Below, one piece after another: positions 3,499-47,886 of a stretch of DNA of 57,893 nucleotides. The notes below the pieces were generated by a model, which saw only the letters and a list, made by a program, of their open reading frames with translations, made no database searches and had not been told where the DNA came from. Position 1 is the first letter of the stretch. The number at the start of each line of letters is the position of its first letter. The stretch lies in assembly GCA_040756475.1 (NCBI GenBank), contig JBFLZB010000007.1, forward strand, positions 1 to 57,893. Direction: 5' to 3'. The translations under genes and the position numbers were made by a program. This DNA comes from Thermodesulfobacteriota bacterium (GTDB lineage: Bacteria; Desulfobacterota; Deferrisomatia; Deferrisomatales; JACRMM01).

Positions 3499-6400
3499 GT
3501 GTCCGCCCTCCCCTCCTCCGCCCCGTCAGCCCCATCGGTCCCGTCGGCCCCACTGGGCGAGCGCCCCGCCGGCCGCTTCGAGCACCTCCTGGACGCGCTC
3601 GGGCGCGACCGCCGGGTGCGGGCCCAGGGGCTGCGGGGGTCGAGCCGGGCGTACCTGCTCGCGCGCCTCCTGCGGGAGCGGGGCGCGCCGGCCCTGGTCC
3701 TCACGGCCACCCTGACCGAAGCGCGCCGCTTCGCCAACGAGCTTCGGTTCTTTCTCGGGGCCGGCCCCCCGGCTTCCCCGGCGGACGCCCGGGTGGTGCT
3801 CTTCCCGGGGTGGGAGGCATCCCCCTTCGAGGGCATCCCGCCCCTGCCGGAGGTCTCCGCCCGGCGAATCGCCGCGCTGGCTCGGGCGCGTCACCCGGGG
3901 CCGTTCGCCCTGGTCGCCCCCGTGGGGGCGGCCCTCCAGCGCACCCTGCCCCCGGAGGTCCTCGAAGGCGCGCAGGCAAGGGTGGCGGTGGCCGACGCCC
4001 TGGACCGGGAGGTCCTGGCCCGCCGGCTCGTGGAGAGCGGCTACCACGCCGTGGGACAGGTGGCGGAGCCCGGGGAGGTCAGCCTGCGGGGGGGAATCGT
4101 GGACGTCTTCGCCCCCTTCTACCCCCAGCCGCTGCGGATCGAGCTCTTCGGCGACGAGGTGGCGTCGATCCGAACCTTCGACCCGGTCACCCAACGCTCC
4201 ACCCTGCGCCTGGAGGCCGCCGTGCTCCTCCCGGCCCGGGAGGTGGTCGCCGGGCCCGAGGCCGTGGAGCGGGCGGCGGCCCGGCTGCGGGCCCGCTGCC
4301 GGGAGCTGGGGCTCCCGCGGGCCAAGACCGCCGAGGCCCTGGAGAGCCTGCGCTCCTCCGCGGTCTCGCCCCTGCGGGACCTCTTCTACCCCTACTTCTG
4401 CGAGGCGGCCGTCCCCCTGTGGGCCCACCTCCCGGCGGGGACCCTGGCGGTCTTCGACGAGGCCGGGCCGGTGGAGGAGCGCGCCCGGGAGCTCTTTGAG
4501 GAGGCGCGGCTCTCCCACGCCCGGGCCGTGGAGCGCGAGCAGGTGGTGCCGGCGGTGGCCGACGTGTACCTGGGGGCCGGGGAGTGGGAGGCCTTTGCGG
4601 GTTCCACGGCCCGGCTCGACCTGGAGGAGCTCGAGACCGCCGGGGGGCCCGGCCTCGCCATCGCCTTCTCGACCCAGTCCAACCAGGACCTCTCGGCGGC
4701 CCTTCGCCAGAATCGGGGGAGCGAGCGCCTCCTCACCCCCCTGGTGGAGGAGATCGGCCGGGCCCGGGAGAAGGGCGTGGCCCTGTGGCTCGTGTGCCAG
4801 AGCCCTGGGACCGTGCAGAAACTGCGCGACCTCCTCGCCTCCTACGGGGTGCGCCTGGGGGAGAGCGAGGCCTTCCCCGAAGACCCCGCCCCCGACGGCA
4901 AGCTCCACGCGGCCGTGGGGGCCCTGGCCCGGGGGTTTCGGTTCCCGGCCAAGCGCCTCGCGGTGGTCTCCGACGCCGAGATCCTGGGGGAGAAGGTGCG
5001 CCGCCCCGCCCCCGCGACGCGCCAGGGGTTTCGGTCGACCCTGGCGGACCTGGAGACGGGCGACGCCATCGTCCACCAGGACTCCGGCGTGGGCCTGTAT
5101 CGGGGCCTCGTGCGCCTGGACGTGGCGGGGGAAGAGGGCGACTACCTCCACCTGGAGTACGAGGGGGGCGACCGGCTCTACCTGCCGGTCACCCGGATCG
5201 GCCTCGTGCAGAAGTACTCCGGCCCCGGCGAGGGCCTGCCGCGGCTGGACAAGCTCGGAGGCAAGGCCTGGGAGAAGGCCCGCCGCAAGGCCCTCGAGGG
5301 CATCGAGAAGATGGCCCACGACCTCCTGGAGCTCTATGCCCGGCGCCAGCTCGCCACCCGCCCCGCCTACGACCCCCTGGACCTCGCCTACCGGGAGTTC
5401 GAGTCCACCTTCCCCTACGAGGAGACCCCCGACCAGCTCCGGGCCATCGACGACGTGCTCCGGGACCTGGAGGGGCCCCATCCCATGGACCGCCTCATCT
5501 GCGGCGACGTGGGGTACGGGAAGACCGAGGTGGCCATCCGGGCCGCCTTCCGGGCCGTGACCGGGGGCCGGCAGGTGGCGGTGCTCGTGCCCACCACGGT
5601 GCTCGCCGCCCAACACTTCCAGAGCTTCCGGCGGCGGTTCGAGGGGTACCCCCTCACCGTGGAGATGCTCTCGCGCTTCGTCTCCCCGGCCGAGCAGAAG
5701 GAGATCCTCGGGCGGATCGCCCGGGGCGGGGTGGACGTGGTGGTGGGCACCCACCGGCTCCTCCAGCGCGACTTGAAGTTCAAGGACCTGGGCCTGGTGG
5801 TGGTGGACGAGGAGCACCGGTTCGGGGTGTCCCACAAGGAGCGCTTGAAGCAGCTCCGGGCCCGGGTGGACGTGCTCACCCTCTCGGCCACCCCCATCCC
5901 CCGCACCCTCAACATGGGGCTCTCCGGGGTGCGGGACCTCTCCATCATCGAGACCCCCCCGGCGGACCGCCTCGCGGTGCGCACGAGCTTGGCCCGGTTC
6001 GACGACGACGTGATCCGCGAGGCCCTGCAGCGCGAGCTCCACCGGGGGGGGCAGGTCTACTTCGTGCACAACCGGGTGCAGTCCATCGCGGGCATGGCCG
6101 ACCACGTGCGCCGGCTCGTGCCGGGGGCCCGGGTGGGGGTCGGGCACGGACAGATGCGCGAGCGCGACCTCGAGAAGGTGATGGAGCAGTTCGTGGCCGG
6201 AGAGCTCGACGTGCTCGTCTGCACGGCCATCATCGAGTCGGGCCTCGACATCCCCCGGGCAAACACCATCGTCATCAACCGGGCGGACCTCTTCGGCCTG
6301 GCCGACCTCTACCAGCTCCGGGGACGGGTGGGCCGCTCCAACCTGCGCGCCTACGCCTACCTCCTCGCCCCCGAGGAGGCCGAGCTCACGGGCGACGCCC

Positions 6401-7038
6401 GCAAGCGCCTCCAGGCCCTCCAGGAGTTCACCGAGCTCGGCGCCGGGTTCAAGATCGCCACCCACGACCTGGAGATCCGGGGCGCCGGGGAGCTCCTGGG
6501 CAAGGCCCAGTCGGGCCAGATGGCCGCCATCGGGTTCGACCTCTACGCCGAGCTCCTGGAGGAGGCCGTGCGACGGCTCAAGGGCGAGCCGGTGGAGAAG
6601 GCCCCCGAGCCCGAGATCCGCCTCAAGGTCCCCGCCCACTTCCCCCTGGAGTACGTGGAGGACCCCCGCCAGCGCCTCGTGCTCTACGAGCGCCTCACGC
6701 GGGCCGCGGGCCCCGACGAGCTCGACGACATCCGCTACGAGCTCATCGACCGGTACGGCCCGGTGCCCCTCCCGGTGGAGAACCTCCTCGAAGTCATGAA
6801 GATCCGCCGGCGCCTCGTGGACCTGCGGGCCGTGAGCTGCGACTACACGGGCAAGGACCTGGTGCTCGCCTTCGGCGAGTCCCCCCGGGTGGACCCGGAC
6901 CGGGTGCTCGCCCTGGTCCAGGGCGAGCCGGAGCGCTTCCGGGTCACCCCCGACAACCGGATCCTGTGGAAGACCGGCCCCCTCGAAGCCACCCAGGTCC
7001 TCGCCGCCGCCCGGGAGCTGTTGAACCGCCTCTCCTGA
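3499..7038 (+). CDS. mfd: Transcription-repair coupling factor
   Basis: 1179-aa ORF with GTG start. CarD-like segment (IVHQDSGVGLYRGL), the helicase motifs GDVGYGKTEVA and DEEHRFGV, and a TRCF C-terminal domain. Confidence 0.95.
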   Translation: MSALPSSAPSAPSVPSAPLGERPAGRFEHLLDALGRDRRVRAQGLRGSSRAYLLARLLRERGAPALVLTATLTEARRFANELRFFLGAGPPASPADARVVLFPGWEASPFEGIPPLPEVSARRIAALARARHPGPFALVAPVGAALQRTLPPEVLEGAQARVAVADALDREVLARRLVESGYHAVGQVAEPGEVSLRGGIVDVFAPFYPQPLRIELFGDEVASIRTFDPVTQRSTLRLEAAVLLPAREVVAGPEAVERAAARLRARCRELGLPRAKTAEALESLRSSAVSPLRDLFYPYFCEAAVPLWAHLPAGTLAVFDEAGPVEERARELFEEARLSHARAVEREQVVPAVADVYLGAGEWEAFAGSTARLDLEELETAGGPGLAIAFSTQSNQDLSAALRQNRGSERLLTPLVEEIGRAREKGVALWLVCQSPGTVQKLRDLLASYGVRLGESEAFPEDPAPDGKLHAAVGALARGFRFPAKRLAVVSDAEILGEKVRRPAPATRQGFRSTLADLETGDAIVHQDSGVGLYRGLVRLDVAGEEGDYLHLEYEGGDRLYLPVTRIGLVQKYSGPGEGLPRLDKLGGKAWEKARRKALEGIEKMAHDLLELYARRQLATRPAYDPLDLAYREFESTFPYEETPDQLRAIDDVLRDLEGPHPMDRLICGDVGYGKTEVAIRAAFRAVTGGRQVAVLVPTTVLAAQHFQSFRRRFEGYPLTVEMLSRFVSPAEQKEILGRIARGGVDVVVGTHRLLQRDLKFKDLGLVVVDEEHRFGVSHKERLKQLRARVDVLTLSATPIPRTLNMGLSGVRDLSIIETPPADRLAVRTSLARFDDDVIREALQRELHRGGQVYFVHNRVQSIAGMADHVRRLVPGARVGVGHGQMRERDLEKVMEQFVAGELDVLVCTAIIESGLDIPRANTIVINRADLFGLADLYQLRGRVGRSNLRAYAYLLAPEEAELTGDARKRLQALQEFTELGAGFKIATHDLEIRGAGELLGKAQSGQMAAIGFDLYAELLEEAVRRLKGEPVEKAPEPEIRLKVPAHFPLEYVEDPRQRLVLYERLTRAAGPDELDDIRYELIDRYGPVPLPVENLLEVMKIRRRLVDLRAVSCDYTGKDLVLAFGESPRVDPDRVLALVQGEPERFRVTPDNRILWKTGPLEATQVLAAARELLNRLS
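3522..3557. repeat. Nonamer tandem array (4 units, CCCRTCGGY) inside the mfd 5' end
   Basis: cccgtcagc cccatcggt cccgtcggc cccactggg, encoding SAPSAPSVPSAPLG. It is the reverse complement of the GATCGGNCS-type unit seen elsewhere in the window. Confidence 0.6.
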
Positions 7039-7123
7039 TGTGCTAGCGTTTCGGAGCGGTATCTTCCTCGCGCCCGCCCGAGCTCATCCCGTCCTTCCCG
7101 GCGCCGGACCCCTTCGAGGTTCC

Positions 7124-8041
7124 ATGAAGCCCTGCCTCCTCCTGTCCTCCGCAGTCGCCCTGACCCTGGCGTGCGCCGCAGCGCTGGCCCCCGCGGCCCG
7201 AAGCGCGCCCGTAGACGGCCTCGCCGCCGTGGTCGACGGCCGGGTCATTACGCGCAGCGAACTCCAGCAGGCCCTCGTCCTGGCCGAGCGCACCGGCCTC
7301 GCCTCCGGGCCCGGAGCCCGGGACCAGGTGCTGGAGGGCCTCATCGAGAAGGCCCTCGTGGAGTCGGAAGCCCGGCGCATGGGGGTCGCGGTGGCCGCAG
7401 AGGAGGTCGAGCGGGCCGTGGCCGACATCCGCAAGCGAAACGGCCTCGACGAGGCGGGATTCCGGGGGGTCATCGAAGGCCAGGGGATGGACTACGGCGA
7501 GTACCTGGGGGAGGTGCGCTCCCAGATCCTGCGCCTCAAGGTGGCGGGACGGGCGCTTCGCGCCCGCCTCCAGGTGAGCGACGAGGCCCTGCGGGAGCAC
7601 TACCTGAAGAACGTGGCGGAGTTCTGCGACCCGGACGCGGTGCGGCTCTTTCACGTCCAGGCCCGGGGAGACGACGCGCGCAGCGCCGCGGAGGCCGCAA
7701 GGGCTCGGCTCCTGGCCGGGGAGGATCCGGCCTCCGTGGCCCGGGACGTCTCCCCCTCGGCCACGGGCGCCGACATGGGCTACGTGCCGCTCGCGAACCT
7801 CTCGGAGGAGGTCCGGGACGCCCTGCGCGAGGCGGACCCCAGCGGGGTGACCCCGGTGGTGGAGATGCGGGGAGCCTGCCACGTGTTCGTGGTGGCCGAC
7901 CGCCAGGGCGGGCGCATCCCCGACTTCGAGGAGGTGCGCGATCGGGTGCGGGAGCGCTATTTCCTGGACCGGGAGGAAGAGCTCTTCCAAACCTGGATCG
8001 AGTCCCTCAAGGCCCAGGCCCGGATCGTGAGGAAGATGTGA
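7124..8041 (+). CDS. SurA-like periplasmic peptidyl-prolyl isomerase/chaperone
   Basis: ATG-7124 gives the signal peptide MKPCLLLSSAVALTLACAAALAPAA. SurA N-terminal-like region followed by a PpiC-type rotamase-like region. Sits immediately upstream of pdxA, the classic surA-pdxA order. Confidence 0.8.
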   Translation: MKPCLLLSSAVALTLACAAALAPAARSAPVDGLAAVVDGRVITRSELQQALVLAERTGLASGPGARDQVLEGLIEKALVESEARRMGVAVAAEEVERAVADIRKRNGLDEAGFRGVIEGQGMDYGEYLGEVRSQILRLKVAGRALRARLQVSDEALREHYLKNVAEFCDPDAVRLFHVQARGDDARSAAEAARARLLAGEDPASVARDVSPSATGADMGYVPLANLSEEVRDALREADPSGVTPVVEMRGACHVFVVADRQGGRIPDFEEVRDRVRERYFLDREEELFQTWIESLKAQARIVRKM

Positions 8042-8103
8042 CCCGTTGCGTGTTGCGCGTTGGGCTCAAGGCCCAGGCCCGCATCGTGAGGAAGATGTGA
8101 CCC
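8006..8103. repeat. 39-bp direct duplication (38/39 identical) of the surA-end/pdxA-start junction, separated by 20 bp of CGTTGCG-type heptamers
   Basis: CTCAAGGCCCAGGCCCG[G/C]ATCGTGAGGAAGATGTGACCC at 8006-8044 and 8065-8103. The spacer at 8045-8064 is gttgcgtgttgcgcgttggg. Confidence 0.9.
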
Positions 8104-9194
8104 TGACCCTCGCGCTCACCTGCGGCGAACCCGCGGGGATCGGCGCGGAGGTGGCCCTGAAGGCTCTCGCGGCGGGCCTGCCCCCCGGCGTGGAGGCGGT
8201 GCTGGTGGGGCCCCGGACAGTGTGGGCCGCGGCGGCCGGCCTCGTCCCCGGGGGCTTCGACCTGGCCCGGTGGCGCATCCGGGAGCCCGCGGCGTCCGAG
8301 CCCGCGGGGCGGCCCGACCGGCCCGACCGGCCCGATCATTCCGAGCGGGCCGACCGGGCCCCACCGGCCGACTGGAGCTGGGGCCGCCCTACCGCCCGGT
8401 CCGGGAGGGTCGCCGCCGAAGCGGTGGAGCTCGCAGCCCGCCTCGCCTTGGCGCGAGAGGTAGACGGCCTGGTCACGGCCCCCCTCTCCAAGGAGGGGCT
8501 CCACGCCGCCGGCCGGCCTTTTCCAGGCCACACCGAGCTCCTGGCGAGCCTGTGCGGCCCGGGTCACCGGGCCGTGATGATGCTCGGGGGTCCGCGCCTC
8601 AAGGTGTTCCTGGTGACCACCCACCTGCCGCTCGCCCGGGTGCCTGGCCAGGTGACCCGGGAGGCCGTGCTCGCCACCGTTACCGCGGCCCACCGGGGCC
8701 TGGAGCGGGACCTGGGGATTGCCTCCCCCCGCCTCGCCGTCTGCGCCCTGAACCCCCACGGGGGGGAAGGGGGCGTGCTGGGCTTCGAGGAGCGCGACGT
8801 CATCGCGCCGTCCCTGGAGGAAGCCCGGGCCGCGGAGATCCGGGCCGTGGGCCCCCTGCCCGCCGACAGCGCCTTTCACCGCGCCGCGCAGGGGGAGTTC
8901 GACGCGGTGGTGGCCATGTACCACGACCAGGGCCTGGCGCCCCTGAAGCTCCTCCACTTCTGGGACGGGGTCAACGTGACCCTGAACCTCCCCCTGGTGC
9001 GCACGAGCCCCGACCACGGCACCGCCCTCGACCTGGCCGGCCGGGGCGCCGCCCGCCCCGACAGCTTCCGGGAGGCCATCCGCTGGGCCGCCGAGATCGC
9101 CCGCCGAAGGCGGGCGGCTCGCGACGGGTCCGACCTCTCCGACCCGTCGGACGGGTCGGACAAGCCGATGGCCACCCGTCGCCGCCAACCATGA
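8097..9194 (+). CDS. pdxA: 4-hydroxythreonine-4-phosphate dehydrogenase
   Basis: GTG-8097 gives VTLTLALTCGEPAGIGAEV. Also contains VTAPLSKEGL, GHTELLA, LNPHGGEGG, MYHDQGLAPLK and RTSPDHGTA. The track's ATG-8046 start lies in the duplicated junction. Confidence 0.88.
   Translation: MTLTLALTCGEPAGIGAEVALKALAAGLPPGVEAVLVGPRTVWAAAAGLVPGGFDLARWRIREPAASEPAGRPDRPDRPDHSERADRAPPADWSWGRPTARSGRVAAEAVELAARLALAREVDGLVTAPLSKEGLHAAGRPFPGHTELLASLCGPGHRAVMMLGGPRLKVFLVTTHLPLARVPGQVTREAVLATVTAAHRGLERDLGIASPRLAVCALNPHGGEGGVLGFEERDVIAPSLEEARAAEIRAVGPLPADSAFHRAAQGEFDAVVAMYHDQGLAPLKLLHFWDGVNVTLNLPLVRTSPDHGTALDLAGRGAARPDSFREAIRWAAEIARRRRAARDGSDLSDPSDGSDKPMATRRRQP
8293..8373. repeat. Nonamer array (GGCCCGACC-type, about 9 units) in frame inside pdxA
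   Basis: ggcccgacc at 8311-8319 and 8320-8328, ggcccgatc at 8329-8337, gggccgacc at 8347-8355, plus degenerate flanking units. Encodes AGRPDRPDRPDHSERADRAP. Confidence 0.65.
9123..9167. repeat. Nonamer array (GACSNGTCS, 5 units) forming the pdxA C-terminal tail
   Basis: gacgggtcc gacctctcc gacccgtcg gacgggtcg gacaagccg, encoding DGSDLSDPSDGSDKP just before the pdxA stop / next-gene ATGA overlap. Confidence 0.65.
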
Positions 9195-10615
9195 CCATCC
9201 GCTTCGGCACCGACGGCTGGCGGGGCGTCATGGCCCGGGACTTCACCTTCGCCAACGTGCGCCGCGTGTCCGCGGCCATCGGCGCGTACCTGGAGGCCGA
9301 GGGCACCGCCGCCCGGGGAGTGGCCGTGGCCTGGGACCGGCGGCTCCTCTCGGACCGCTTCGCGGCCGAGGCCGCGGGGGTGCTCGCGGCCCGGGGCATC
9401 CCCGTGCGACTTGCCGCGGCGCCGGAGCCGACCCCGCTCCTCTCCTGGGCGGTGCGGCACCAGGGGCTGGCGGGGGGCATCGGGATCACCGCCTCCCACA
9501 ACCCCCCCGAGTGGAGCGGGATCAAGCTCAAGGAGCCCTTCGGCGGGGCCGCCCGGGCCTCGGTGAGCCGCGCCGTGGAGGAGCACCTGGAGGCCCAACC
9601 CCCGGGGGACGAGATCCCGTGCCTCTCCCTGGAGGAGGCCCGCGGGGCGGGACTCCTGGCGGCGCTCGACGCCTGGCGGGGCTACCGGGAAGCCCTGGGG
9701 CGCCTCGTGGACTTCGCCGCCCTGCGGCGGGCAGGCCTTGCCGTGGCCGTGGACGCCATGCACGGGTGCGGCAGCCCGGGGCTCCGCCGCCTCCTGGAGG
9801 AGGCCGGGTGCCGGGTGCGCGAGCTGCGTAGCGAGTGGAACCCCGGCTTCGGCGGCACGGCCCCCGAGCCGGTGGAGGCCAACCTCTCGCGACTCGCCGA
9901 GGTCGTAAAGTTCGAGGGGTGCGCCCTGGGGCTCGCCAACGACGGCGACGCCGACCGGATCGCCGCGGTGGACGAGCGGGGGCGCTACTTCTCCCCCCAG
10001 CGCATCCTCGCGGTGCTCCTGCGATACCTCCGGGAGGAGAAGGACCTGCCCGGAGGCGCCGTAAAGGCGGTCTCCGCCACGTCCCTCGTGGATCTCCTGG
10101 CGCAGCGCTACGGGATGGAGGTGACGCTCACCCCCATCGGCTTCAAGCACATCGGCGAGGCCATGCTCGCACGGCCCGCCCTGATCGGCGGCGAAGAGAG
10201 CGGGGGCATCGGCATCCCCGCCCACCTGCCCGAGCGCGACGGGCTCCTGAACGCCCTGCTCCTCGCCGAGATCGTCGCCCGCACCGGCCGGGGCCTGCGG
10301 GCCTACCTCCAGGAGATCTTCGACCAGGTGGGCTACTTCACCTACGACCGCCTGGACCTGCCCCTGGATCCCGCCGAGGCGCCCGCCGTGCGTTCGCGCA
10401 TGGCCGACGTCGACGATCCTCCCGCCCTGGCCGGCGCCCGGGTCGCCCAGGTGCTTCGCCTCGACGGCACCCGCTTCCTGCGCGACGACGCCTCCTGGCT
10501 GCTGGTTCGCCCCTCCGGCACCGAACCGCTCCTTCGCATCTACGCCGAGGCGAGAAGCGAGGCCGAGGTGCGGGAGCTGCTCGAGGAGGGAAAGCGGTTG
10601 GCGGGTTGCGCGTAG
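9191..10615 (+). CDS. Phosphoglucomutase/phosphomannomutase family (alpha-D-phosphohexomutase)
   Basis: ATG-9191 overlaps the pdxA stop (ATGA). Translation starts MTIRFGTDGWRG, with the active-site loop GITASHNPPEWSGIK, DGDADR and GGEESGG. Confidence 0.9.
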   Translation: MTIRFGTDGWRGVMARDFTFANVRRVSAAIGAYLEAEGTAARGVAVAWDRRLLSDRFAAEAAGVLAARGIPVRLAAAPEPTPLLSWAVRHQGLAGGIGITASHNPPEWSGIKLKEPFGGAARASVSRAVEEHLEAQPPGDEIPCLSLEEARGAGLLAALDAWRGYREALGRLVDFAALRRAGLAVAVDAMHGCGSPGLRRLLEEAGCRVRELRSEWNPGFGGTAPEPVEANLSRLAEVVKFEGCALGLANDGDADRIAAVDERGRYFSPQRILAVLLRYLREEKDLPGGAVKAVSATSLVDLLAQRYGMEVTLTPIGFKHIGEAMLARPALIGGEESGGIGIPAHLPERDGLLNALLLAEIVARTGRGLRAYLQEIFDQVGYFTYDRLDLPLDPAEAPAVRSRMADVDDPPALAGARVAQVLRLDGTRFLRDDASWLLVRPSGTEPLLRIYAEARSEAEVRELLEEGKRLAGCA

Positions 10616-10901
10616 CCTGTTGCAGGTGGGTGACGGGTCCGTTATCGGGTGTCCGTTGTCCGACGGACTGCCGAAGGACCTTGGGTTCCTGGGCTGACCG
10701 TGGCAATGCTCTTGCGCACAGCGTTATTGTCACTCCAACGGTCCCGGTCTGTCCGGCCTGTGCTTCCCTTGTGGAACCGTTCCCGGCCCGCTGCGGTGGA
10801 GGCGACGGACCGTGGGGCAGTAACGGGCCCGCGGCTACTGCCGTCCGTCGAGTCCCTCCGCGCGTGCCGGGCCTGGCCGGCCCGCACCCGGGCCGGCAGT
10901 G

Positions 10902-11612: not shown

Positions 11613-11614
11613 GG

Positions 11615-13225: not shown

Positions 13226-13288
13226 GGGCTTGCTCCACCTCGTCTGCCGTGGCACCGGCTCGAGCCCCCGGAGGAGGGGAAGGGAGGG

Positions 13289-14979: not shown

Positions 14980-15060
14980 GCCGCGTCCCTTCCCCGAGCT
15001 CATGCGCGCCTCGCCATCCGGTCTGCCCGCGACGATTCCTTCTCAGGCTCCCACAGGCTC

Positions 15061-26204: not shown

Positions 26205-29002
26205 CGCGCGCCGGCCCGACCTCTCAACCGTCCCGGGCCCGGCGACGTCCGAAGCTCTTGGTCCTGTGCCTGCTCTGGACACTGCTCCTGTTCCCGAAGA
26301 CGGCGCAGGCCTACGACACCCATCTGTCGGCGGCGCAAGGCCGTCGCGTGGCGCGGATCGAGATCGTGAACCCGAGCCTCGTCCCGGACCGGGAGATCCG
26401 GCAGCTCTTCGGCCTCGCCCCCGGAGAGGTCTATGAGATCCGGAGGGTGCAGAGAGGCCTGCTGCGCCTGGCCCAGAAGGTCGGGGTGCGGGACGTGATC
26501 GTGCGGGGGGCCCTGGAGGAGCGCTCCGTCGCCCTGGCGCTGGAGGTGGTACCAGAGCCCCTGGTGCGCAGTGTGCGCCTGCGGGGGAATCGGGCGCTGC
26601 GCGACGCGGCCCTGCGGGGCCGCCTCGAGACCCGGGTGGACCGCCCCCTGAGCGAGACCGTGTTCGCCCGGGACGTGGAGGCCCTGCGCGAGCTCTACGA
26701 GAACGAGGGTTTTCCCTCGGTCCAGGTGCGGCACCGCGTGGAGCCGGTGGGGGACGGCCTGTGGCTGCGCCTCGTGATCGAGATCGACGAGGGTGCGCCC
26801 CAGCGCATCCTTCGCCTGGAGGGCATCGAGGCGCTGGAGGAGCCGGGCGACGACGGGGTGCCCCCCATGGAGCGCCCCCGGCTCGTGGCCCTCCTGGGGC
26901 TGAGGGAGGGCGCGCCGGCCTCCCGGCGGCAGCTGCGCGACGGAGTGCGCCGGGTGGTGGACGTGCTGCACCGGGAAGGCTACCCGGAAGCCCGGATCGG
27001 GCGCGCCGCCTTTCGCGCCGAGGGGGACGGCGCCGTGCTCTCGCTACCCCTGACGCTGGGAGAAGCCATCGACGTCCGGGTGGAGGACGTGGACGAGTGG
27101 GCCGCCGATGCCCTGCGGGAGATCGCCCGCGGGCGCTTCGGGGAACCCCTGGACGGCCACTGGATCGAGCGCACCGCCGAGCTGATGGAGGAGTACCTGC
27201 GCGCCCAGGGCCATTACCACGCCTCCGTGGAGACCGAGGATACCTGGGCGTACGGCCGCCGCCGCATCGTCTTCCGGACCGAGCGCGGGCCCCGGGTGCG
27301 TGTGGCCGAGGTGGCGTTCGAGGGCAACAAGAACGTCTCGTCGGCGAGCCTGCGGCAGTACCTCTCCCTCGTGGTCGGCGGGATCGTCCGCCCCCCCCCT
27401 CTTACCCAGGAGGCCCTCGACCGTGACCTCCAGGTCGTCGTGGACTACTACGCCTCCCGGGGATACCCGGAGGCGCGGGTCGAGGTGGCGGGGCTGTCTG
27501 TGTCGCCCGCGGGCAAGGCGTCGCTTCGCCTGCGCGTGGACGAGGGGCGCCTCTACCGGCTGGGGGAGATCGCCTTCGACGGCAACGGGGCGCTCGATCC
27601 CGGCGAGATCCAGGCGGCGGCCGCCCTCCGGCCGGGAGCTCCGTCCGACCCCGGGGAGCTGGGGGAGGCGCGGCTGCGCATCTTGAGGGAGCTGGAACGG
27701 CGGGGCCACCCCGAGGCCGCCGTGGAGCTCGAGGTGGAACGGGACTACGAGGCGGGCCTCGTCCACCCCACCTACCGCATCCGGGGCGGCCCGCGCGTCC
27801 GGTTCGGCGAAACCGTGGTCTCGGGGAATGCCCGCACCCAGACCAAGGTGGTCCAGCGGGAGCTCACCTTCCGGAGCGGCGATCTCTGGGATCCCCAGGA
27901 GGTGCAGCGCAGCCGGCAGCGCCTGTACCGCCTGGGGTTCTTCCAGCGGGTGCGCATCGAGCCCTTGACCCGGAATCCGGGGGACGAGGTGCGCGACGCG
28001 TGGGTGGAGGTGGAGGAGCAGGACGCGGGCAGCGTGACCCTGGGCCTGGGCTACGGTACCGAGGAGGGGGTGAAGGGCTCGGCCTCGCTTTCCCACGCCA
28101 ACCTCTGGGGCTCCGGGCGCAGCCTGGGCCTTCGGTACGACTTCGACCAGCTGGACCGGTCCTGGGCGGTCAACTTCCGGGAGCCGTGGCTCCTGGGCCG
28201 GCGCCTCGAGCTGGGCCTGACGCTCGTGAAGAGCTACCAGAACCGGGACGCGTACAACCTCTCCTCCCTGGGTTTCCAGGCGTCTCTCGAGCGGGAGTTC
28301 GGGGAGAACGTCAGGGGCTCCCTCTTCTACACGATCGAAGACAACGAGCTCGCCGACGTGGTGGACGAAACCGTGGTGGGTCAGGACCAAATCAACGCCT
28401 ATCTCCTCTCGGCCCTGGGGCCGGTGCTCGTGTGGGACTCCCGGGACGACCCCTTCAACCCGCGGCGGGGCTACCACCACACCGTCCAGGTGGAGTGGGC
28501 CTCGAACGCCTTCGGGTCCGACGTGGAGTACGAGCGATACCTGGGGTCCGCGAGCGGGTTCTTCACCGCGGGGAGGGTGACCCTGGCGCTGCTGGCCCGG
28601 GGGGGGATCGCCGTGCGCCTGGGGAGCGCCGCGGATCTACCCGTGAACAAGCGCTTCTTCCTGGGAGGGCGCAGCACCCTGCGGGGGTTCCAGAAGGACG
28701 AGGCCGGGCCCAGGGCCGCCGACGGCACCCCCGTGGGGGGCGACGTGATGGGGAACCTCAAGGCGGAGCTCCGGTTTCCCCTGTGGAAGCAGCTCGGGGG
28801 AGCGGCCTTCTGGGACGCGGGCAACGTGTGGAACCGGACCCCGGGCTTCCCCGGGAGCACGGGCATCCGACAGGGCGCGGGGGGCGGGCTGCGCTATCTC
28901 ACCCCCGTGGGTCCCCTCTCCCTGGACCTGGGCTTCAACCTCGACCCCCGGGAGGGCGAGGACGCCTGGGTCTGGTACTTCACCATCGGCAACGTGTTCT
29001 GA
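26201..29002 (+). CDS. bamA: BamA/TamA-family outer membrane protein assembly factor (multiple POTRA domains + Omp85 barrel)
   Basis: 933 aa. ATGA overlap with tamB. POTRA-like repeats (V..I.F.GN...). Barrel end ...GGLRYLTPVGPLSLDLGFNL....W.WYFTIGNVF. Confidence 0.88.
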   Translation: MTRAGPTSQPSRARRRPKLLVLCLLWTLLLFPKTAQAYDTHLSAAQGRRVARIEIVNPSLVPDREIRQLFGLAPGEVYEIRRVQRGLLRLAQKVGVRDVIVRGALEERSVALALEVVPEPLVRSVRLRGNRALRDAALRGRLETRVDRPLSETVFARDVEALRELYENEGFPSVQVRHRVEPVGDGLWLRLVIEIDEGAPQRILRLEGIEALEEPGDDGVPPMERPRLVALLGLREGAPASRRQLRDGVRRVVDVLHREGYPEARIGRAAFRAEGDGAVLSLPLTLGEAIDVRVEDVDEWAADALREIARGRFGEPLDGHWIERTAELMEEYLRAQGHYHASVETEDTWAYGRRRIVFRTERGPRVRVAEVAFEGNKNVSSASLRQYLSLVVGGIVRPPPLTQEALDRDLQVVVDYYASRGYPEARVEVAGLSVSPAGKASLRLRVDEGRLYRLGEIAFDGNGALDPGEIQAAAALRPGAPSDPGELGEARLRILRELERRGHPEAAVELEVERDYEAGLVHPTYRIRGGPRVRFGETVVSGNARTQTKVVQRELTFRSGDLWDPQEVQRSRQRLYRLGFFQRVRIEPLTRNPGDEVRDAWVEVEEQDAGSVTLGLGYGTEEGVKGSASLSHANLWGSGRSLGLRYDFDQLDRSWAVNFREPWLLGRRLELGLTLVKSYQNRDAYNLSSLGFQASLEREFGENVRGSLFYTIEDNELADVVDETVVGQDQINAYLLSALGPVLVWDSRDDPFNPRRGYHHTVQVEWASNAFGSDVEYERYLGSASGFFTAGRVTLALLARGGIAVRLGSAADLPVNKRFFLGGRSTLRGFQKDEAGPRAADGTPVGGDVMGNLKAELRFPLWKQLGGAAFWDAGNVWNRTPGFPGSTGIRQGAGGGLRYLTPVGPLSLDLGFNLDPREGEDAWVWYFTIGNVF

Positions 29003-29005
29003 AGA

Positions 29006-29110
29006 GCATAGGGCATAGAGCATGGGGCATAGAGCGCCGGTTCCGTCCGACCCAAAGGTCCCATAGGTCCCATACGTCCCATACGTCCCATGACCCCCAT
29101 ACGTCCCATG
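29006..29110. repeat. Composite short tandem repeat filling the bamA-cobU spacer: 4 heptamers (GCATRGR) then 7 nonamers (SGTCCCATR)
   Basis: gcatagg gcataga gcatggg gcataga at 29006-29033. cgacccaaa ggtcccata ggtcccata cgtcccata cgtcccatg acccccata cgtcccatg at 29048-29110. Confidence 0.85.
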
Positions 29111-32238: not shown

Positions 32239-33908
32239 GGCCCCGGGGGGTGTCGGCGCTCCTCGCGGTCCTGTGGGCCCTGGGGGCGGTTTCCGGGCCG
32301 GCGGCCCACGCCCGGGAGGAGCTCTCCTTTCGCGTTCCCCGCACCCTCCTCCACGCGCTGGCGGCTCCCGACGGCTGGCGCCGGCCCGGCCTGCGCGAAG
32401 AGCTCGCGGCCGCCAATCCCGGAATCCGCTCGCCCCTCCTGGGCGGCGACGCCAACCGCTTCTCCCTCGCCTGGGAGGTGAAGGGAGTGGGAGCGTTTCG
32501 CCTTGCGGGCCCCCGGATGGCCGCCTACCGGCTGTCCCTCGGGGTCATCGGGGAGGCCGAGAGCCTCCTGACCCTGCCCCAGGGGTACGGCGTGGCGGAA
32601 ACCCGCAGCGAAGCGGGGACGCTCGTGGTCCGGGTCGCCCCCGGCGAGGCTTCGGAAGCGGAGGAGGCGGAGGAGGCGGAGGAGGCACCGGACCTCGCCG
32701 GGGCGCTTCGCGAGCGGGGCTCGGCGACCCTGCGCCTCCTGGGCTCCCACCGCTACCAGAAGCCGTCCCTCGGGGGCCTCAACCCCGACAACCGTCTCCT
32801 GGCGCTGCCCCGCCAGGTCTCGGAGGGCGAGGTGCGGCTCGACCTCTCGGCCGACCTGGGCCGCCTCTCCCTCCTGGCCAAGCCCCGGGCCCGGTGGGCC
32901 CGGGAGCACTGGCAGGAGGGTCCCGCGGCGGGGGACTCCGACACCGACGCCGAGGTCGTGCTGCTGGAAGGCTCCGCCCAGCTCCGGCTCCGGCAGAACC
33001 TCTTCGCATCTCTTGGCCGCGAGAACCTCCAGTGGGGTCCCGGGCAGCTCGCCAACCCCTCCAACCCCTTCTTCGCCGACAACGGGCGGGAGAACCCCGT
33101 GCGGGAGGTCCCGGGGATGGACTTCGCCCGGGTCGTATGGCTGCCCACGGCAGCTTGGACCCTCTCGTGGATCGCCAACACCGGGCGGGGAGAGGGGGAT
33201 GTGCCCGGCGGCGAGTGGCGCGGGTCCCAGGCCCTCAAGCTCGATTACCTGGGGTACGCCGCCCACGGGGCGCTCCTCCTCCACGCCGGCACCGGGGTCC
33301 GGCCCTCCCTGCGCGGCTACGGCCAGGTGACCGCGACCGAGGCCCTGCTCCTCTACGCCGAGGCCGGGGTCTCCCGGGGCACCCGCGCGCGCTATCCCGC
33401 CGACGGCCCGCCCCCCCTGGGGGTCGCCCTGGAGGAGACGAAGAAGGACGTGCCGCGGTGGTTTCCCACGTCCCTGCTGGGGGCGGCCTACACGCTCCGC
33501 CTTGGCCCCACCCTCTCGGCCGAGTATCTCTACTACCGCGAGGGCTACGACGACGCCGAGGCCGAGCGGTTCTTCGACCTGGCCCACGGGGCGGGCGCAC
33601 TCGCGGCGGCAGGGCTCGCAGCCCCGGATCCGGACGGCTTCTCCACCCGCCTGCGCCTCCTGCGCAGGAACTACCTGTTCGTCCAGTACCTCCACACCGA
33701 GATCGCCCGCCGCCTCACCCTCCTCCTGCGGAGCACCCAGAACCTCGACGACGGAAGCCAGCTCGTTACCGGCTTCGCCGAGTGGAACCTCTCGGACCAC
33801 TGGCGCCTCTTCGCCTTCGGAGCCCACGGCTCCGGCGGCAACCGCGACGAGTTCGGGAGCGCCCTGCGCTACCTGGGGCTGGCGGGGGTGGAGTGGTCGG
33901 CCTTCTAG
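32235..33908 (+). CDS. Hypothetical secreted outer-membrane beta-barrel-like protein
   Basis: ATGA overlap with cobC. Signal peptide MRPRGVSALLAVLWALGAVSGPAAHA, alternating-polarity strands, and a terminal ...YLGLAGVEWSAF (aromatic C-terminus typical of OMPs). Confidence 0.65.
   Translation: MRPRGVSALLAVLWALGAVSGPAAHAREELSFRVPRTLLHALAAPDGWRRPGLREELAAANPGIRSPLLGGDANRFSLAWEVKGVGAFRLAGPRMAAYRLSLGVIGEAESLLTLPQGYGVAETRSEAGTLVVRVAPGEASEAEEAEEAEEAPDLAGALRERGSATLRLLGSHRYQKPSLGGLNPDNRLLALPRQVSEGEVRLDLSADLGRLSLLAKPRARWAREHWQEGPAAGDSDTDAEVVLLEGSAQLRLRQNLFASLGRENLQWGPGQLANPSNPFFADNGRENPVREVPGMDFARVVWLPTAAWTLSWIANTGRGEGDVPGGEWRGSQALKLDYLGYAAHGALLLHAGTGVRPSLRGYGQVTATEALLLYAEAGVSRGTRARYPADGPPPLGVALEETKKDVPRWFPTSLLGAAYTLRLGPTLSAEYLYYREGYDDAEAERFFDLAHGAGALAAAGLAAPDPDGFSTRLRLLRRNYLFVQYLHTEIARRLTLLLRSTQNLDDGSQLVTGFAEWNLSDHWRLFAFGAHGSGGNRDEFGSALRYLGLAGVEWSAF
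32652..32687. repeat. 9-bp tandem repeat GAGGAGGCG x3-4 inside the OMP gene (SEAEEAEEAEEA)
   Basis: tcggaagcg gaggaggcg gaggaggcg gaggaggca, read directly. The motif is unrelated to the GATCGG family. Confidence 0.8.
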
Positions 33909-35747: not shown

Positions 35748-35823
<76 letters not shown>

Positions 35824-35938: not shown

Positions 35939-36025
35939 GCCGAAGTGGTGGAATTGGTAGACGCGCTGGACTCAAAATCCAGTGGGGTAACACCCGTGTC
36001 GGTTCGAGTCCGACCTTCGGCACCA
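35939..36025 (+). tRNA. tRNA-Leu (anticodon CAA), long variable arm
   Basis: GCCGAAGTGGTGGAATTGGTAGACGCGCTGGACTCAAAATCCAGTGGGGTAACACCCGTGTCGGTTCGAGTCCGACCTTCGGCACCA. The anticodon loop is CT-CAA-AA. Confidence 0.93.
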
Positions 36026-40900: not shown

Positions 40901-41021
40901 CGCCCACCGGAAGCTCGACGAAGCGGTCTTCGCCGCCTACGGCTGGGACCCCGGCCTCTCGGACGAGGCCATTCTGGAGAAGCTGCTCGCGCTCAACCGG
41001 GAGCGCAGCGGGTTCTTGTAG
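37980..41021 (+). CDS. MmeI-family type IIL restriction-modification enzyme (fused PD-ExK nuclease + gamma-class N6-adenine methyltransferase + TRD)
   Basis: 1013 aa. N-terminal D67-x9-E77-x-K79 ([16 protein letters not shown]), SAM motif [13 protein letters not shown], and motif [15 protein letters not shown]. The overall layout matches MmeI-like 'class I SAM-dependent DNA methyltransferase' proteins. Confidence 0.85.
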
Positions 41022-41062
41022 CCTCCCCTGTCCTCGGGTAGGTTTCGGGCCGTGCCCGCAGG

Positions 41063-43672: not shown

Positions 43673-43695
43673 AGTCCACCCGAAAGGAGGAATCC

Positions 43696-44274: not shown

Positions 44275-44294
44275 CGGCGCCGACGGGAGCCCCC

Positions 44295-45089
44295 ATGACG
44301 CGTCTGCGGTCCACGGATCGATCCCCGAGCCTCCCCCGCCTCTACCGCGACCTGGCGAGCTGGTTCCCCCTGCTCACGCCACCGGGGGACTACGCCGAGG
44401 AGGCTGGGATCTATCGGGAGGCCTTCTTCGCGCTCACGGCGCCCCGGCGGCCGCACACCCTTCTGGAGCTGGGTTCCGGCGGCGGGCACAACGCCTCGCA
44501 CCTCAAGGCCTGGTTCGAGGTGACCCTGGTGGACCTCTCCCCCGAGATGCTGGAGGTGAGCCGGGCGCTCAACCCCGAGTGCGCCCACGTCGCCGGCGAC
44601 ATGCGCACGGTGCGGCTGGGGCGGCAGTTCGACGCGGTGTTCCTGCAGGACGCGGTGGGGTACCTCACCACCGCGGAGGACCTGCGGGCGGCGGCACGGA
44701 CTGCCTTCGCCCACTGCGCGCCGGGGGGTGCGGCGCTCTTCTGCCCCGACTTCGTGCGGGAGAGCTTCCGGCCGGGCACCGAGCACGGCGGCAGCGACGA
44801 ACCCGGCGGGTCCGGGCGGGGACTCCGGTACCTGGAGTGGGTGTGGGACCCGGACCCGGGCGACGACACGTACCTGGCGGACATGGCGTACCTGCTGCGC
44901 CACGCCGACGGCACCCTCGAGGCGGTGGCCGACCGGCACGTGCTGGGGCTCTTCCCCCGGGCGACCTGGGCCCAGGCCATCACCGCAGCGGGCTTCGGCT
45001 TCGAGGCGCGGCCCTTCGCCCACAGCACGCTGCCTTCCGGAGCCCACGAGCTGTTTGCGGGCCGCAGGGCCGCGCAGGGGAATTCATGA
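44295..45089 (+). CDS. Class I SAM-dependent methyltransferase (MT1)
   Basis: Motif I LLELGSGGGHNA, then VDLSPEML and FDAVFLQDAV. Alternative start GTG-44271 overlaps the flavin reductase stop. Confidence 0.8.
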   Translation: MTRLRSTDRSPSLPRLYRDLASWFPLLTPPGDYAEEAGIYREAFFALTAPRRPHTLLELGSGGGHNASHLKAWFEVTLVDLSPEMLEVSRALNPECAHVAGDMRTVRLGRQFDAVFLQDAVGYLTTAEDLRAAARTAFAHCAPGGAALFCPDFVRESFRPGTEHGGSDEPGGSGRGLRYLEWVWDPDPGDDTYLADMAYLLRHADGTLEAVADRHVLGLFPRATWAQAITAAGFGFEARPFAHSTLPSGAHELFAGRRAAQGNS

Positions 45090-45916: not shown

Positions 45917-45939
45917 GAGGGGAGCGACGGGGTTCTCAT

Positions 45940-45966
45940 TGCCGGACCGATCGGTCGGATCCCTCA
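45940..45966. repeat. Nonamer array (3 units) containing the 20-mer CGGACCGATCGGTCGGATCC
   Basis: tgccggacc gatcggtcg gatccctca. The 20-mer at 45943-45962 is identical to 47006-47025. Confidence 0.75.
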
Positions 45967-46088
45967 ACGCGTGGGGCAGGCGGTGGGTGCGGATCGTGTA
46001 TCGCCCTTCGGTGCGGCTGTCTCGCCCATTGACCGCTCTGCGTGTCCAGGCTAGCCTGCCCCGGGAAGCACGAATGGAGGTATCCCCC

Positions 46089-46340
46089 ATGAGCCAGATC
46101 GTTTTCGATGTGCCGAGCCAGGTCGCGTTGGCCTTGAAGGTTCCAGAAGAGAAGGTGGGCGATGCGTTGCGCATGGCGGCTGCGGTCAAGCTCTTCGAGC
46201 TTGGCCGCCTGTCTTCAGGTGCCGCTGCCCGGCTCGCCGGCGTGCCTCGCACCGTGTTCCTGACGCGATTGGCCGATTTCGACGTCGACACCTTCCGTCT
46301 CACGCAAGAAGAGCTGGCGAGAGAGACGCGCCTTGCGTGA
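46089..46340 (+). CDS. UPF0175-family antitoxin-like protein
   Basis: ATG-46089, 9 nt after GGAGG. MSQIVFDVPSQVALALKVPEEKVGDALRMAAAVKLFELGRLSSGAAARLAGV.R..F is the UPF0175 pattern. Confidence 0.75.
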   Translation: MSQIVFDVPSQVALALKVPEEKVGDALRMAAAVKLFELGRLSSGAAARLAGVPRTVFLTRLADFDVDTFRLTQEELARETRLA

Positions 46341-46821
46341 GGTGATCAGCAACACGTCTCCACTCCAGTACCTGCATCAGGTTGGTGGACTCGATCTTCT
46401 GCGCACCCTGGTCGGAACCCTCGTCATTCCCCCGGCGGTGGTGCGGGAGTTGGCTGAAGGCCGCGCCCGTGGCATCGATCTGCCTGATCCCGAGTCCCTT
46501 GACTGGATCGTCGTCCGCGTCCCCCGCAGTACACCTGCGCTGCCTCTTCTGGCCGACCTCGGCCCCGGCGAGGCCGAAGTGCTCGCCTTGGTGCTGGAGT
46601 CGGCGGGGGCTGTGGCGATCCTCGACGACGCACTCGCCCGGCGAATGGCCGAATCCCTGCATCTTCCGTTGACAGGCACACTGGGGGTACTCGTCGACGC
46701 GAAGAAAGCAGGTCTCCTGCATGCCGTTGCCCCTCTCCTCGACTCGCTCGACGCGCTCGGCTTTCGGCTGGCCTCCAGGACCCGGGCTGCAGTGCTCGCC
46801 CTCGCGGGAGAGGCACCATAG
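46333..46821 (+). CDS. DUF3368 (PIN-like) toxin-like protein
   Basis: Overlaps the upstream gene by 8 nt (TTG-46333; alternative GTG-46342). VISNTSPLQYLHQVGGLDLL....G.LVIP.AV..EL and GEAEVLALVLE...AILDD..AR..A....L..TGTLGVL..AK..G is the DUF3368 signature. Confidence 0.75.
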   Translation: MREVISNTSPLQYLHQVGGLDLLRTLVGTLVIPPAVVRELAEGRARGIDLPDPESLDWIVVRVPRSTPALPLLADLGPGEAEVLALVLESAGAVAILDDALARRMAESLHLPLTGTLGVLVDAKKAGLLHAVAPLLDSLDALGFRLASRTRAAVLALAGEAP

Positions 46822-46846
46822 CCGGGCCGCCGCCCCGCCCCACTCC

Positions 46847-47000
46847 CTCCCCCGCCTCTACCGCGACCTGGCGAGCTGGTTCCCCCTGCTCACGCCCCCG
46901 GGGGACTACGCCGAGGAAGCCGAGATCTACCGGCGGGCCTTCGAGGACCTGGCGGCGCCCCGGCGGCCTCGCACGCTGCGGCCGGGGCGGCGGGGTGCTC
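46847..47000 (+). pseudogene. 5' fragment of an MT1-like methyltransferase gene (ends at SAM motif I)
   Basis: 46847-46971 aligns with 44331-44455 (first 71 nt 70/71 identical). Encodes [41 protein letters not shown], then loses frame at the GSGGG motif and runs into a nonamer array. Confidence 0.75.
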
Positions 47001-47001
47001 T

Positions 47002-47886
47002 TCATCGGACCGATCGGTCGGATCCGGCGGATCGGGCCGATGGGGCCGATGGAGACGATCCCTGGAGCGATTGCGTGCCCTTGCACTGCGGGAAGGCCGA
47101 GCAGCCCCAAAACTGGGAGCCCGGTCGCGGGCCCTGGCGGGCGGTGCGCAGGGCCATGGGTTGGCTGCAGAGGGGGCAGGCCGGCGCCTCGGGGGCGGCA
47201 TCGGGCCCGGGGGCGCCGCCCTGCCGGCGCCGCTCGGCGATCCTCGCCGCGGCCAGCCGCTCGCTGTAGCCGCCCTCGGTGATGAAATTCCGTTCCAGGC
47301 CGGCGATCTGGCGGTCCAGGAGGTAGTTCGCCTGGTGGATGAGGCAGATCACGGCGTTGGCCACCACGGCGGGGTCGCCATGGTCGAGCCAGGGGGCATA
47401 GGGGCCGAAGAGGCTTGCCGGGGCGCCAGGGTCAGACCGATCGGTCGGATCGGGCCGATCGGTCGGATCGGGCGGATCGGACGGATGTGAGCGGTCGAAA
47501 CCCTGCTGCCGCCCCACCTCCCGCACCTGCCGCGCCTCCGGGGAGCTCTTGCCCCAGAGGGGCAGCTTTTTCTGGCGCAGGAAGTCTTCGTAGTCGAGCA
47601 AGAGCTCGTCGAGGCTGGCCCGCGCCACGCTTACCAGCCGCAGCTCGGTCTGGCTCGATGCCGCCGAGGCGCGGCTTCCCTCGGCGATGTTCTGGCGGCC
47701 GCTGCGCGCGGCCTGCACCATCTGGTCGACCGTGCGGGAGCGCTTGTCGAGGAAGCGGGAGCAGAAGAGGACCGTGGCGTCGTACACGACGGTCGCCGAC
47801 TGAAAGGACCGCAGCTTCCGGTACCCGCCGCTGGGGCGCAGCTTGGGGGATCCGCCCGGCGCCTGTGGTTGTTCGCCATTTTTCAT
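47002..47886 (-). CDS. Four-helix-bundle protein (23S-rRNA-IVS/Avd-like fold family) with '4HB suffix' domain fused to a topoisomerase-type C4 zinc finger
   Basis: GGYRKLRSFQSATVVYDATVLFCSRFL.KRSRTVDQMVQAARSGRQNIAEGS.....SQTELRL..VARASLDELLLDYEDFLR, the suffix VANAVICLIHQANYLLDRQIAGLERNFITEGGYSERL, then CPLC..PM.LRTA.....GSQFWGCSAFPQCKGT. Confidence 0.8.
   Translation of the reverse strand: MKNGEQPQAPGGSPKLRPSGGYRKLRSFQSATVVYDATVLFCSRFLDKRSRTVDQMVQAARSGRQNIAEGSRASAASSQTELRLVSVARASLDELLLDYEDFLRQKKLPLWGKSSPEARQVREVGRQQGFDRSHPSDPPDPTDRPDPTDRSDPGAPASLFGPYAPWLDHGDPAVVANAVICLIHQANYLLDRQIAGLERNFITEGGYSERLAAARIAERRRQGGAPGPDAAPEAPACPLCSQPMALRTARQGPRPGSQFWGCSAFPQCKGTQSLQGSSPSAPSARSAGSDRSVR
47003..47065. 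repeat. Nonamer array (7 units, GATCGGNCS)
   Basis: catcggacc gatcggtcg gatccggcg gatcgggcc gatggggcc gatggagac gatccctgg. On the minus strand it supplies the last about 20 codons and the stop of the 4HB gene. Confidence 0.85.
47430..47492. repeat. Nonamer array (7 units) in frame inside the 4HB gene
   Basis: ggtcagacc gatcggtcg gatcgggcc gatcggtcg gatcgggcg gatcggacg gatgtgagc. On the minus strand it encodes SHPSDPPDPTDRPDPTDRSDP, between the 4HB and suffix domains. Confidence 0.85.

Follow-up and report, generated by a model that had tools for sequence, protein, structure and literature searches.

The window analysed here is the whole of a 57,893-nucleotide (nt) stretch from a Thermodesulfobacteriota bacterium (GenBank assembly GCA_040756475.1, contig JBFLZB010000007.1, positions 1 to 57,893), and the elements of interest are short arrays of a 9-nt tandem repeat that lie both between genes and, in frame, within them. 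The GC content of the window is about 72%, and the best matches of its proteins are in metagenome-assembled genomes of the Deferrisomatales, the closest named genome being GCA_033551855.1. Arrays are found in the genes for Mfd and PdxA, in the spacer between bamA and cobU, and in a gene encoding a four-helix-bundle (4HB) protein with a suffix domain (Table 1). An initial annotation of the sequence had listed seven such stretches; all seven exist where they were placed, and their gene contexts are correct with the exception of the start of pdxA. Because homologues begin VTLTLALTCGEP, we set this start at a GTG near 8097 rather than at TTG 8046, giving a gene of approximately 8097–9194.

Nonamer arrays in the window

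Three observations confirm that the period-9 arrays are real. First, self-comparison of the window at an offset of 9 (at least 21/27 matching) finds five arrays, whereas offsets of 3, 6, 12, 15 and 21 each give none or one; at a looser threshold of 24/36 there are eight regions, compared to an average of 1.3 in triplet-preserving shuffles. Secondly, a scan for three consecutive consensus units (ATSSGNC(NN) x3, allowing up to two mismatches) gives 26 matches where 0.26 are expected and where the maximum among 100 shuffles is two; all 26 are confined to 3520–3553, 8312–8336, 29049–29109, 47004–47059 and 47431–47495. Thirdly, the 17-mer GACCGATCGGTCGGATC is present exactly three times (at 45945, 47008 and 47435; expectation 0), in agreement with the identical oligomers first noticed at three loci. 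As proposed at the outset, the loci are one family of nonamer minisatellites, with the consensus N-A-T-S-G-G-W-C-N. Five of the seven are robust, namely the Mfd, PdxA loop and bamA-cobU arrays and the two within the 4HB-suffix gene; the PdxA tail tract (GACNNNTCS x5) is marginal, scoring only 25/36, and the stretch at 45940–45966 is a secondary copy.

The arrays are tandem, head-to-tail 9-mers 27–80 nt long, as seen both with TRF (Tandem Repeats Finder) and by self-similarity, with an 18-nt higher-order period within arrays and degenerate units at their edges. The units come in two flavours. Flavour A, GATC-SGWCS, is palindromic, and when re-phased is a tandem of TCGGWCCGA, which is fully palindromic over its 9 bp around a central W. 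Flavour B, NATGGGWCN, is G/C-strand-asymmetric, and its opposite strand reads GTCCCATAN. Both are mixed within the window's own array at 47004. The DNA of the type A array at 47425–47500 is self-complementary and folds far better than shuffles (z = -3.05).

Where the arrays lie within genes they are read as (S/T/P/R)-P/D-(R/P/S) tripeptide tracts, and the one DNA unit has a variety of readings: TDR/PDP in the 4HB linker, DRS in the tail of the same protein, RPD in PdxA and APS in Mfd. It is found on both strands and also outside genes, and the signature of the arrays is shown to be one of DNA rather than of protein. All arrays are translatable, as had been claimed, and are placed at the ends of genes or within a loop or linker. 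The conserved positions would fit ATS-GGW-CNN, but a collagen-like origin was ruled out, as no open reading frame (ORF) in the window uses that frame; the frames in use do not give (Gly-X-Y)n, and the unused one gives G-P/R-I/M.

Table 1. Nonamer arrays of the window and the gene that carries two of them
Feature	Coordinates	Strand	Description
Mfd array	3520–3553	+	Weak; four units GCCCCGTCA GCCCCATCG GTCCCGTCG GCCCCACTG, read APS-APS-VPS-APL
PdxA loop array	8308–8373	+	GGCCCGACC x2 and GGCCCGATC, followed by degenerate units; translation RPDRPDRPDHSERADRAPP; inserted in frame within a variable loop
PdxA tail tract	9123–9167	+	Marginal; GACGGGTCC GACCTCTCC GACCCGTCG GACGGGTCG GACAAGCCG (GSDLSDPSDGSDKP); C-terminal tail
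bamA-cobU array	29046–29110	+	Strongest intergenic array; ~7 GTCCCATAC-type units (opposite strand, TATGGGACN)
Two-unit fragment	45940–45966		GGACCGATCGGTCGGATCC; part of a 42-nt stretch duplicated from the 47004 array edge
4HB-suffix gene	47002–47886	-	Four-helix bundle, suffix domain and Top1-type zinc ribbon; two arrays inside
4HB 3' array	47004–47065	-	~7 units GATCGGTCG GATCCGGCG GATCGGGCC GATGGGGCC x2 ...; 3' end of the gene
4HB linker array	47431–47492	-	~6 units GATCGGTCG/GATCGGGCC ..., 18-nt higher-order period; encodes PSDPPDPTDRPDPTDRSDP

Unit number and gene context among relatives

Unit number was compared between independent assemblies of relatives, at bamA-cobU, pdxA and the 4HB-suffix gene. 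The bamA-cobU array is truly intergenic, with the bamA stop at 29002 and cobU starting at TTG 29146 behind an AAGGAGG ribosome-binding site. There are seven units in the window, three in L014 (91% CobU identity) and about two degenerate ones in L012 (88%), and the spacer of the window is longer than that of L014 by exactly 36 nt, or four units. Directly adjoining the nonamers is a heptamer array (29003–29035; GCATAGG/GCATAGA/GCATGGG, with a 14-nt higher-order period) that is kept in L014 and absent in L012, and nonamer arrays in other phyla are often bordered by arrays of 7–8 nt (L022, L103, L107). The RNA of the spacer, of GTCCCATAN type, folds no better than shuffles (z = 0.35), and a hairpin between its heptamer and nonamer arrays was considered and dropped on these grounds. 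A promoter and terminator scan of the spacer found nothing, and an Rfam scan of the window at gathering thresholds matched two tRNAs and a molybdenum/tungsten cofactor (Moco) riboswitch only, leaving the arrays unmatched.

In pdxA, the GGCCCGACC-type insert has three units in the window, two in a 94%-identical orthologue, and none in orthologues of 87%, 85% and 75% identity. A native CGGCCGAC adjoins the insert, and the Asp codon of the PdxA tracts is GAC, which the host prefers. The tail of PdxA lies between the pdxA stop and the start of a phosphoglucomutase-family (PGM) gene; it is absent from L010, where these two genes overlap, and from P0121, and L256 has a different version of it (GCCCGACCC GGCCCATCG GACCGGGCC GACCTCTCA). 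The tract in Mfd (gene at 3499–7038) is within a 13-residue N-terminal extension, ahead of the region covered by the family model, which begins matching at residue 44; the L010 orthologue, which starts LTSSSSDRTFGRFEHLL, is without the tract. The proposal that the arrays had been absorbed into proteins as lineage-specific additions therefore stands for PdxA and Mfd, where alignment finds the tracts not conserved in relatives, and fails for the 4HB protein, whose tracts are a conserved, length-variable feature of TIGR04258 proteins in many phyla.

Both junctions of pdxA have further repeats. The pdxA/PGM junction (9100–9195 in the window) is a hotspot at which each relative has its own short repeat: nonamers in both the window and L256 (2730–2795), a CACCCGG heptamer array in L008 (~2915–2955), a REP-like element with CGCTTCA heptamers in L009 (3815–3930), and no repeat between the overlapping genes of L010. 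At the surA/pdxA junction a 39-nt direct duplication (8006–8044 and 8065–8103; 97% identical) surrounds a 20-nt heptamer element, GTTGCGT GTTGCGC GTTGGG. This duplication (8006–8103) copies the overlapping surA-stop/pdxA-start junction and leaves both genes intact; L008 has the same arrangement with an insert of 37 nt, and in L009, L010 and L256 the ATGTGA overlap is uninterrupted. Such an arrangement is reminiscent of an insertion that duplicated a long target, or of a CRISPR spacer integrated off target.

The product of the 4HB-suffix gene exceeds the curated cutoffs both for the suffix domain (TIGR04258, 74.5 bits; cutoff 40) and for the four-helix bundle (TIGR02436, 28.8; cutoff 24), and so belongs to the family; the zinc ribbon (PF01396) scores 33.1 with a cutoff of 32. 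The array at 47431 forms the linker joining the 4HB and suffix domains, with six units in the window and two (HQTDRSDS) in the 84%-identical orthologue of L001. With the ancestral stop codon missing, translation continues through the array at 47004 and adds a C-terminal tail, ...SSPSAPSARSAGSDRSVR*; the L001 gene ends just ahead of the orthologous 3' array, which is shorter there and intergenic. Codon choice sets the tracts apart, as GAT is used for 5 of 6 Asp residues in the linker, for 1 of 12 in the rest of the gene and for 7.5% genome-wide. Across eight 4HB-suffix loci in genomes of 52–72% GC, the tracts have 44 GAT and 7 GAC, and the remaining parts of the genes 33 and 73.

There are more than 8000 4HB-suffix homologues at 62–84% identity, in Planctomycetota, Verrucomicrobiota, Chloroflexota, Acidobacteriota, 'Deltaproteobacteria' and others. 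Every sequence inspected has variable-length (S/T)D(R/P/Q) tracts at up to four sites (the N-terminus, the 4HB/suffix linker, the suffix/zinc-ribbon linker and the C-terminus), and tracts of this kind characterise the TIGR04258 family as a whole, across phyla. A contig of 62% GC and a Chloroflexi contig of 52% GC have the same DNA units (GATCCGTCC, GATCGGTCG ...); in the Chloroflexi contig the gene is flanked by hsdS and hsdR within a type I restriction-modification operon, and the stop codon precedes the last array. The tracts travel with the gene, and because identical DNA units are present in distant members, those of this gene were not absorbed locally. The high conservation of the gene across phyla is read as horizontal mobility, and these comparisons suggest a horizontally mobile accessory gene that is possibly defence-related. 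We note that the neighbourhoods of the 4HB-suffix/zinc-ribbon gene in different genomes are unrelated (the window; L005–L007).

The two-unit fragment is not an independent array, because it is inside a segmental duplicate: 45921–45962 is 83% identical to 46984–47025, and a 19-nt piece of array was carried along. This 42-nt duplication, which includes the first two array units, bounds a segment of about 1 kb (45921–47025) containing a UPF0175/DUF3368 (PIN-like) toxin-antitoxin pair (~46060–46821) and a truncated 5' methyltransferase copy (46835–46977, 87% identical to 44330–44461). In L001 an intact methyltransferase abuts the array directly.

Distribution across phyla and comparison with known repeats

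The initial annotation had not recognised the family as a described one, and no description of these arrays was found in the searchable literature; they are, however, not special to this genome, as the consensus is found across phyla. A scan with a four-unit pattern, in one genome per species, lists at least 120 array loci, ascertained by that same pattern; gene calls at these loci are crude. Among the matches listed, carriers are Planctomycetota, Verrucomicrobiota, Lentisphaerota (including the isolate Oligosphaera ethanolica DSM 24202), Acidobacteriota, Hydrogenedentota, Myxococcota, Desulfuromonadales, Armatimonadota, and Prevotella and Muribaculum of the Bacteroidota, and several genomes recur two to five times among the 120. 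Planctomicrobium piriforme is also among the carriers. The dominant unit types among these matches are GATC[CG]G[AT]CN and NATGGG[AT]CN, and a few arrays hold both. Pattern positions that were left free are non-random in the 84 heterogeneous arrays listed: position 7 is A/T in 83% of them compared to 49% in homogeneous arrays, 'GC' is almost absent at positions 4–5, and ATC is preceded by G. Some of the matches in Firmicutes and viruses are probably collagen-like, and a scan of viral contigs gave mostly homogeneous arrays, which we read as coding repeats and which are uninformative on the nonamer family.

In other phyla, arrays may be intergenic, directly ahead of start codons, arranged as inverted pairs, or within long ORFs. 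The 120 listed loci have no common neighbour gene, the 4HB-suffix gene being within 8 kb at only 4 of them, and the single larger cluster of neighbours is a generic ABC ATPase family. Perfect inverted pairs of nonamers with loops of 20–75 nt are present in Planctomycetota and Lentisphaerota (L087 1652–1809, L083 2410–2506 and L108 1850–2171); such pairs would fold into long hairpins, with several in tandem in one of the cases.

Several known systems share features with the nonamer arrays. STRR (short tandemly repeated repetitive) sequences, with heptamer units, were reportedly described from heterocystous cyanobacteria by Mazel et al. in 1990. They too have few short units in tandem arrays dispersed at many loci, mostly at gene boundaries and with function not known, a dispersal that is also seen here; however, STRR units are heptamers, never in frame and restricted to one cyanobacterial group, whereas the nonamers are also in frame and occur in many phyla. 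Rickettsia palindromic elements (RPE) are said, from the work of Ogata et al. in 2000, to be selfish repeats in frame inside protein genes. Like these elements, the tracts of PdxA and Mfd are in-frame, lineage-specific peptide insertions at permissive surface sites of housekeeping proteins, and part of the nonamer family is palindromic; RPE differ in being single elements of 100–150 bp, confined to Rickettsia and not known to vary in unit number, as compared to tandem 9-mers of 27–80 nt.

In-frame coding repeats include the 12-bp repeat of the EcoR124I/II HsdS, which resets target spacing, the staphylococcal Ser-Asp regions, and the collagen-like (GPT)n of BclA. Such variable number tandem repeats (VNTRs) resemble the nonamers in that units of 3n length vary the length of a protein by slippage with no frameshift, but each is private to one gene family and one frame, whereas the nonamers occupy unrelated genes, several frames and strands, and intergenic DNA. 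REP elements, hairpins of 20–40 nt, are found strictly outside genes and have a link to REP-associated tyrosine transposases (RAYT). REP/BIME and the cyanobacterial HIP1 (GCGATCGC) are, like the nonamers, dispersed short GC-rich palindromes, and the type A core CCGATCGG has CGATCG in common with HIP1. The arrays inside the PdxA, Mfd and 4HB ORFs are nevertheless not extragenic, neither REP nor HIP1 has a 9-nt period or in-frame occupancy, and HIP1 is not tandem. The term STRR appears in PMC2670836, and RPE are mentioned in PMC1166351 and PMC10969869. A phase-variable contingency locus is not indicated, as period 9 keeps the frame and orthologues with differing unit numbers are all intact ORFs, nor is a CRISPR array (24–40 nt repeats with unique spacers), the nonamers being contiguous with no spacers. 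GATC clusters of the Dam/SeqA type were set aside, since type B units are without GATC. The nonamer family is a dispersed short tandem repeat or minisatellite, and STRR, RPE and in-frame VNTRs each differ from it in defining features.

Origin of the arrays and neighbouring features

The arrays have the head-to-tail organisation and the unit size (within 6–100 nt) of minisatellites or VNTRs, and unit number differs between related genomes at pdxA, bamA-cobU and the 4HB linker. Because orthologous loci differ by whole units or lack the tracts, the tracts are lineage-specific and appear to be recent and unstable, and on these comparisons the arrays are real, apparently fast-evolving minisatellites that lengthen proteins in frame. 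The changes of length between close relatives are in 9-nt steps, which bears out the idea of a slippage-prone source of protein-length variation.

We favour, though with only moderate confidence, an origin as slippage-driven and selectively filtered minisatellites. An array with a few units would grow or shrink in whole 9-nt steps, the likely routes being replication slippage or unequal recombination, with hairpins perhaps assisting the palindromic flavour. The unit is three codons long and most units are free of stops in most frames, and therefore no frameshift would follow. Arrays would persist where a protein can accommodate additional flexible residues (at either terminus, in inter-domain linkers or in surface loops) or in short operon spacers, such that near-neutral tolerance may act as the filter. 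The 18-nt higher-order period and the four-unit jump fit duplication of blocks by slippage or recombination. In-place amplification from short native seeds seems plausible, because the bamA-cobU spacers of relatives hold one or two degenerate units and pdxA has its native CGGCCGAC; the comparisons fit this equally as well as the spread by recombination or repair that had been suggested, which consequently gains no preference. The 4HB-suffix gene may be one vehicle moving arrays between genomes, but that the arrays derive from transport by this mobile gene followed by local spread is much the less probable account.

Several points weigh against slippage as a full explanation. Slippage alone predicts arbitrary units, yet one consensus recurs from Bacteroidota to Planctomycetota. 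The relatives (~86 kb examined) have far fewer arrays than the window, and therefore rate or source differs between close lineages. Secondary arrays beyond the primary hits number only 3 in 0.82 Mb (0.07 in permuted controls), a low density that leaves unsupported the notion that carrier genomes are very dense in arrays, and the cross-phylum pattern, with its 120 or more listed loci, also takes in homogeneous tandem repeats and collagen-like coding repeats. Slippage accounts neither for the single unit seen in so many phyla nor for why GATC is retained.

These two features would be explained if NATSGGWCN arrays were the product or target of a sequence-specific process operating in many phyla, a cross-phylum 'mobile minisatellite' of intergenic DNA and ORFs; we hold this as a tentative possibility. 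Alternatively, the arrays could be functional cis elements (binding-site arrays, rut-like Rho-loading sites, G-quadruplexes or i-motifs, or hairpins) whose copy number tunes expression of neighbouring genes. Intergenic arrays elsewhere are often directly before start codons or are hairpin-forming inverted pairs (L070, L125, L087, L083 and L108), the C-rich strand of type B is the sense strand in 7 of 7 co-directional intergenic cases, with which the bamA-cobU array agrees, and type B arrays, (GGGACNTAT)n, satisfy the G3-N6 x4 pattern of potential quadruplexes. We nonetheless regard a cis function as unlikely: regulation is hard to envisage for units in frame inside the PdxA, Mfd and 4HB genes, copy number varies even among relatives of 88–94% identity, orientation is mixed overall when genic and divergent cases are included, and the bamA-cobU spacer, with its unstructured RNA, offers no promoter- or terminator-like site and no Rfam family.

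A sequence-specific process that itself makes the arrays is a little less likely still. It could be repeated 9-bp staggered cleavage and fill-in at TCGGWCCGA, in the manner of target-site duplication, each event creating a new copy of its own target, or an activity linked to the 4HB-suffix/zinc-ribbon protein, the gene for which is itself full of the arrays. The perfect palindrome of the type A unit with its central W, the recurrence of one unit across phyla, the keeping of GAT(C) despite codon bias, the overlap of array-carrying phyla with those having 4HB-suffix genes, and the presence in the window of two other insertions flanked by duplications of about 40 nt (repeat pairs D13 and D14) are all consistent with such a process. 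However, palindromic symmetry is absent from type B units, the 18-nt periodicity and four-unit jumps fit slippage or recombination better than additions of one unit, and the neighbourhoods of the 120 listed loci share no gene family, 4HB-suffix or other.

It is quite improbable that the tracts are ordinary low-complexity linkers, converging on Ser/Thr/Pro/Asp/Arg with a likeness in DNA that is a by-product of GC content and codon usage. Their location in termini, a loop and linkers, the host-preferred GAC of the PdxA tracts and the conserved tract positions in 4HB-suffix proteins would all agree with this. But the strongest array is intergenic, the 3' array that is translated in the window is intergenic in L001 and L005, one DNA unit is read in several frames, Asp in the 4HB-suffix tracts is 86% GAT compared to 31% in the rest of those genes and 7.5% in this genome, and identical units are present in genomes of 52% and 72% GC; the linker explanation is largely refuted for the GATC-type and intergenic arrays. 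A chance product of codon periodicity at 72% GC, or an assembly artefact, has next to no probability and is already refuted for the five strong loci by the excess of consensus matches, the lack of comparable arrays at other multiples of 3, the orthologous arrays of differing unit number in independent assemblies and the arrays of isolates (e.g. O. ethanolica), even though the regions 3502–3559 and 9117–9168, at 25/36 each, are taken alone near the chance level of about 1.3 per triplet-shuffled window.

If the arrays are as widespread as the scan suggests, they would vary the length of housekeeping and defence-associated proteins in a way so far unrecognised, would be a recurrent origin of spurious ORFs when translated in other frames (SDRSDRSD, MGPMGPMG, PISPISPI), and would be a probable reason for contigs breaking in metagenome assemblies. 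It may then be asked why one nonamer, part palindrome and part G-run, amplifies in Planctomycetota, Acidobacteriota, Myxococcota and Bacteroidota, and whether the linkers of the 4HB-suffix/zinc-ribbon protein, which in at least one lineage is encoded in a type I restriction-modification operon, owe their hypervariability to design or to parasitism.

The window contains other repeats and structured elements. There is another strong period-9 array at 32645–32695, with the unrelated unit GGAGGCGGA, one frame of which would give an acidic Glu/Ala-rich tract. A second dispersed family, REP/BIME-like, has three tandem hairpin units of ~75–82 nt in one intergenic region (49733–49990), of the form CTCGTTGCG...GTTGGGG / loop / CTTCTCCAACGCG..., with related copies after the PGM stop (10600–10625), within the surA/pdxA insert and, in L009, downstream of pdxA (3815–3930). 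The Rfam matches are the Moco riboswitch at 51553–51674 on the reverse strand and the tRNA genes at 35751–35823 (reverse) and 35939–36022 (forward).

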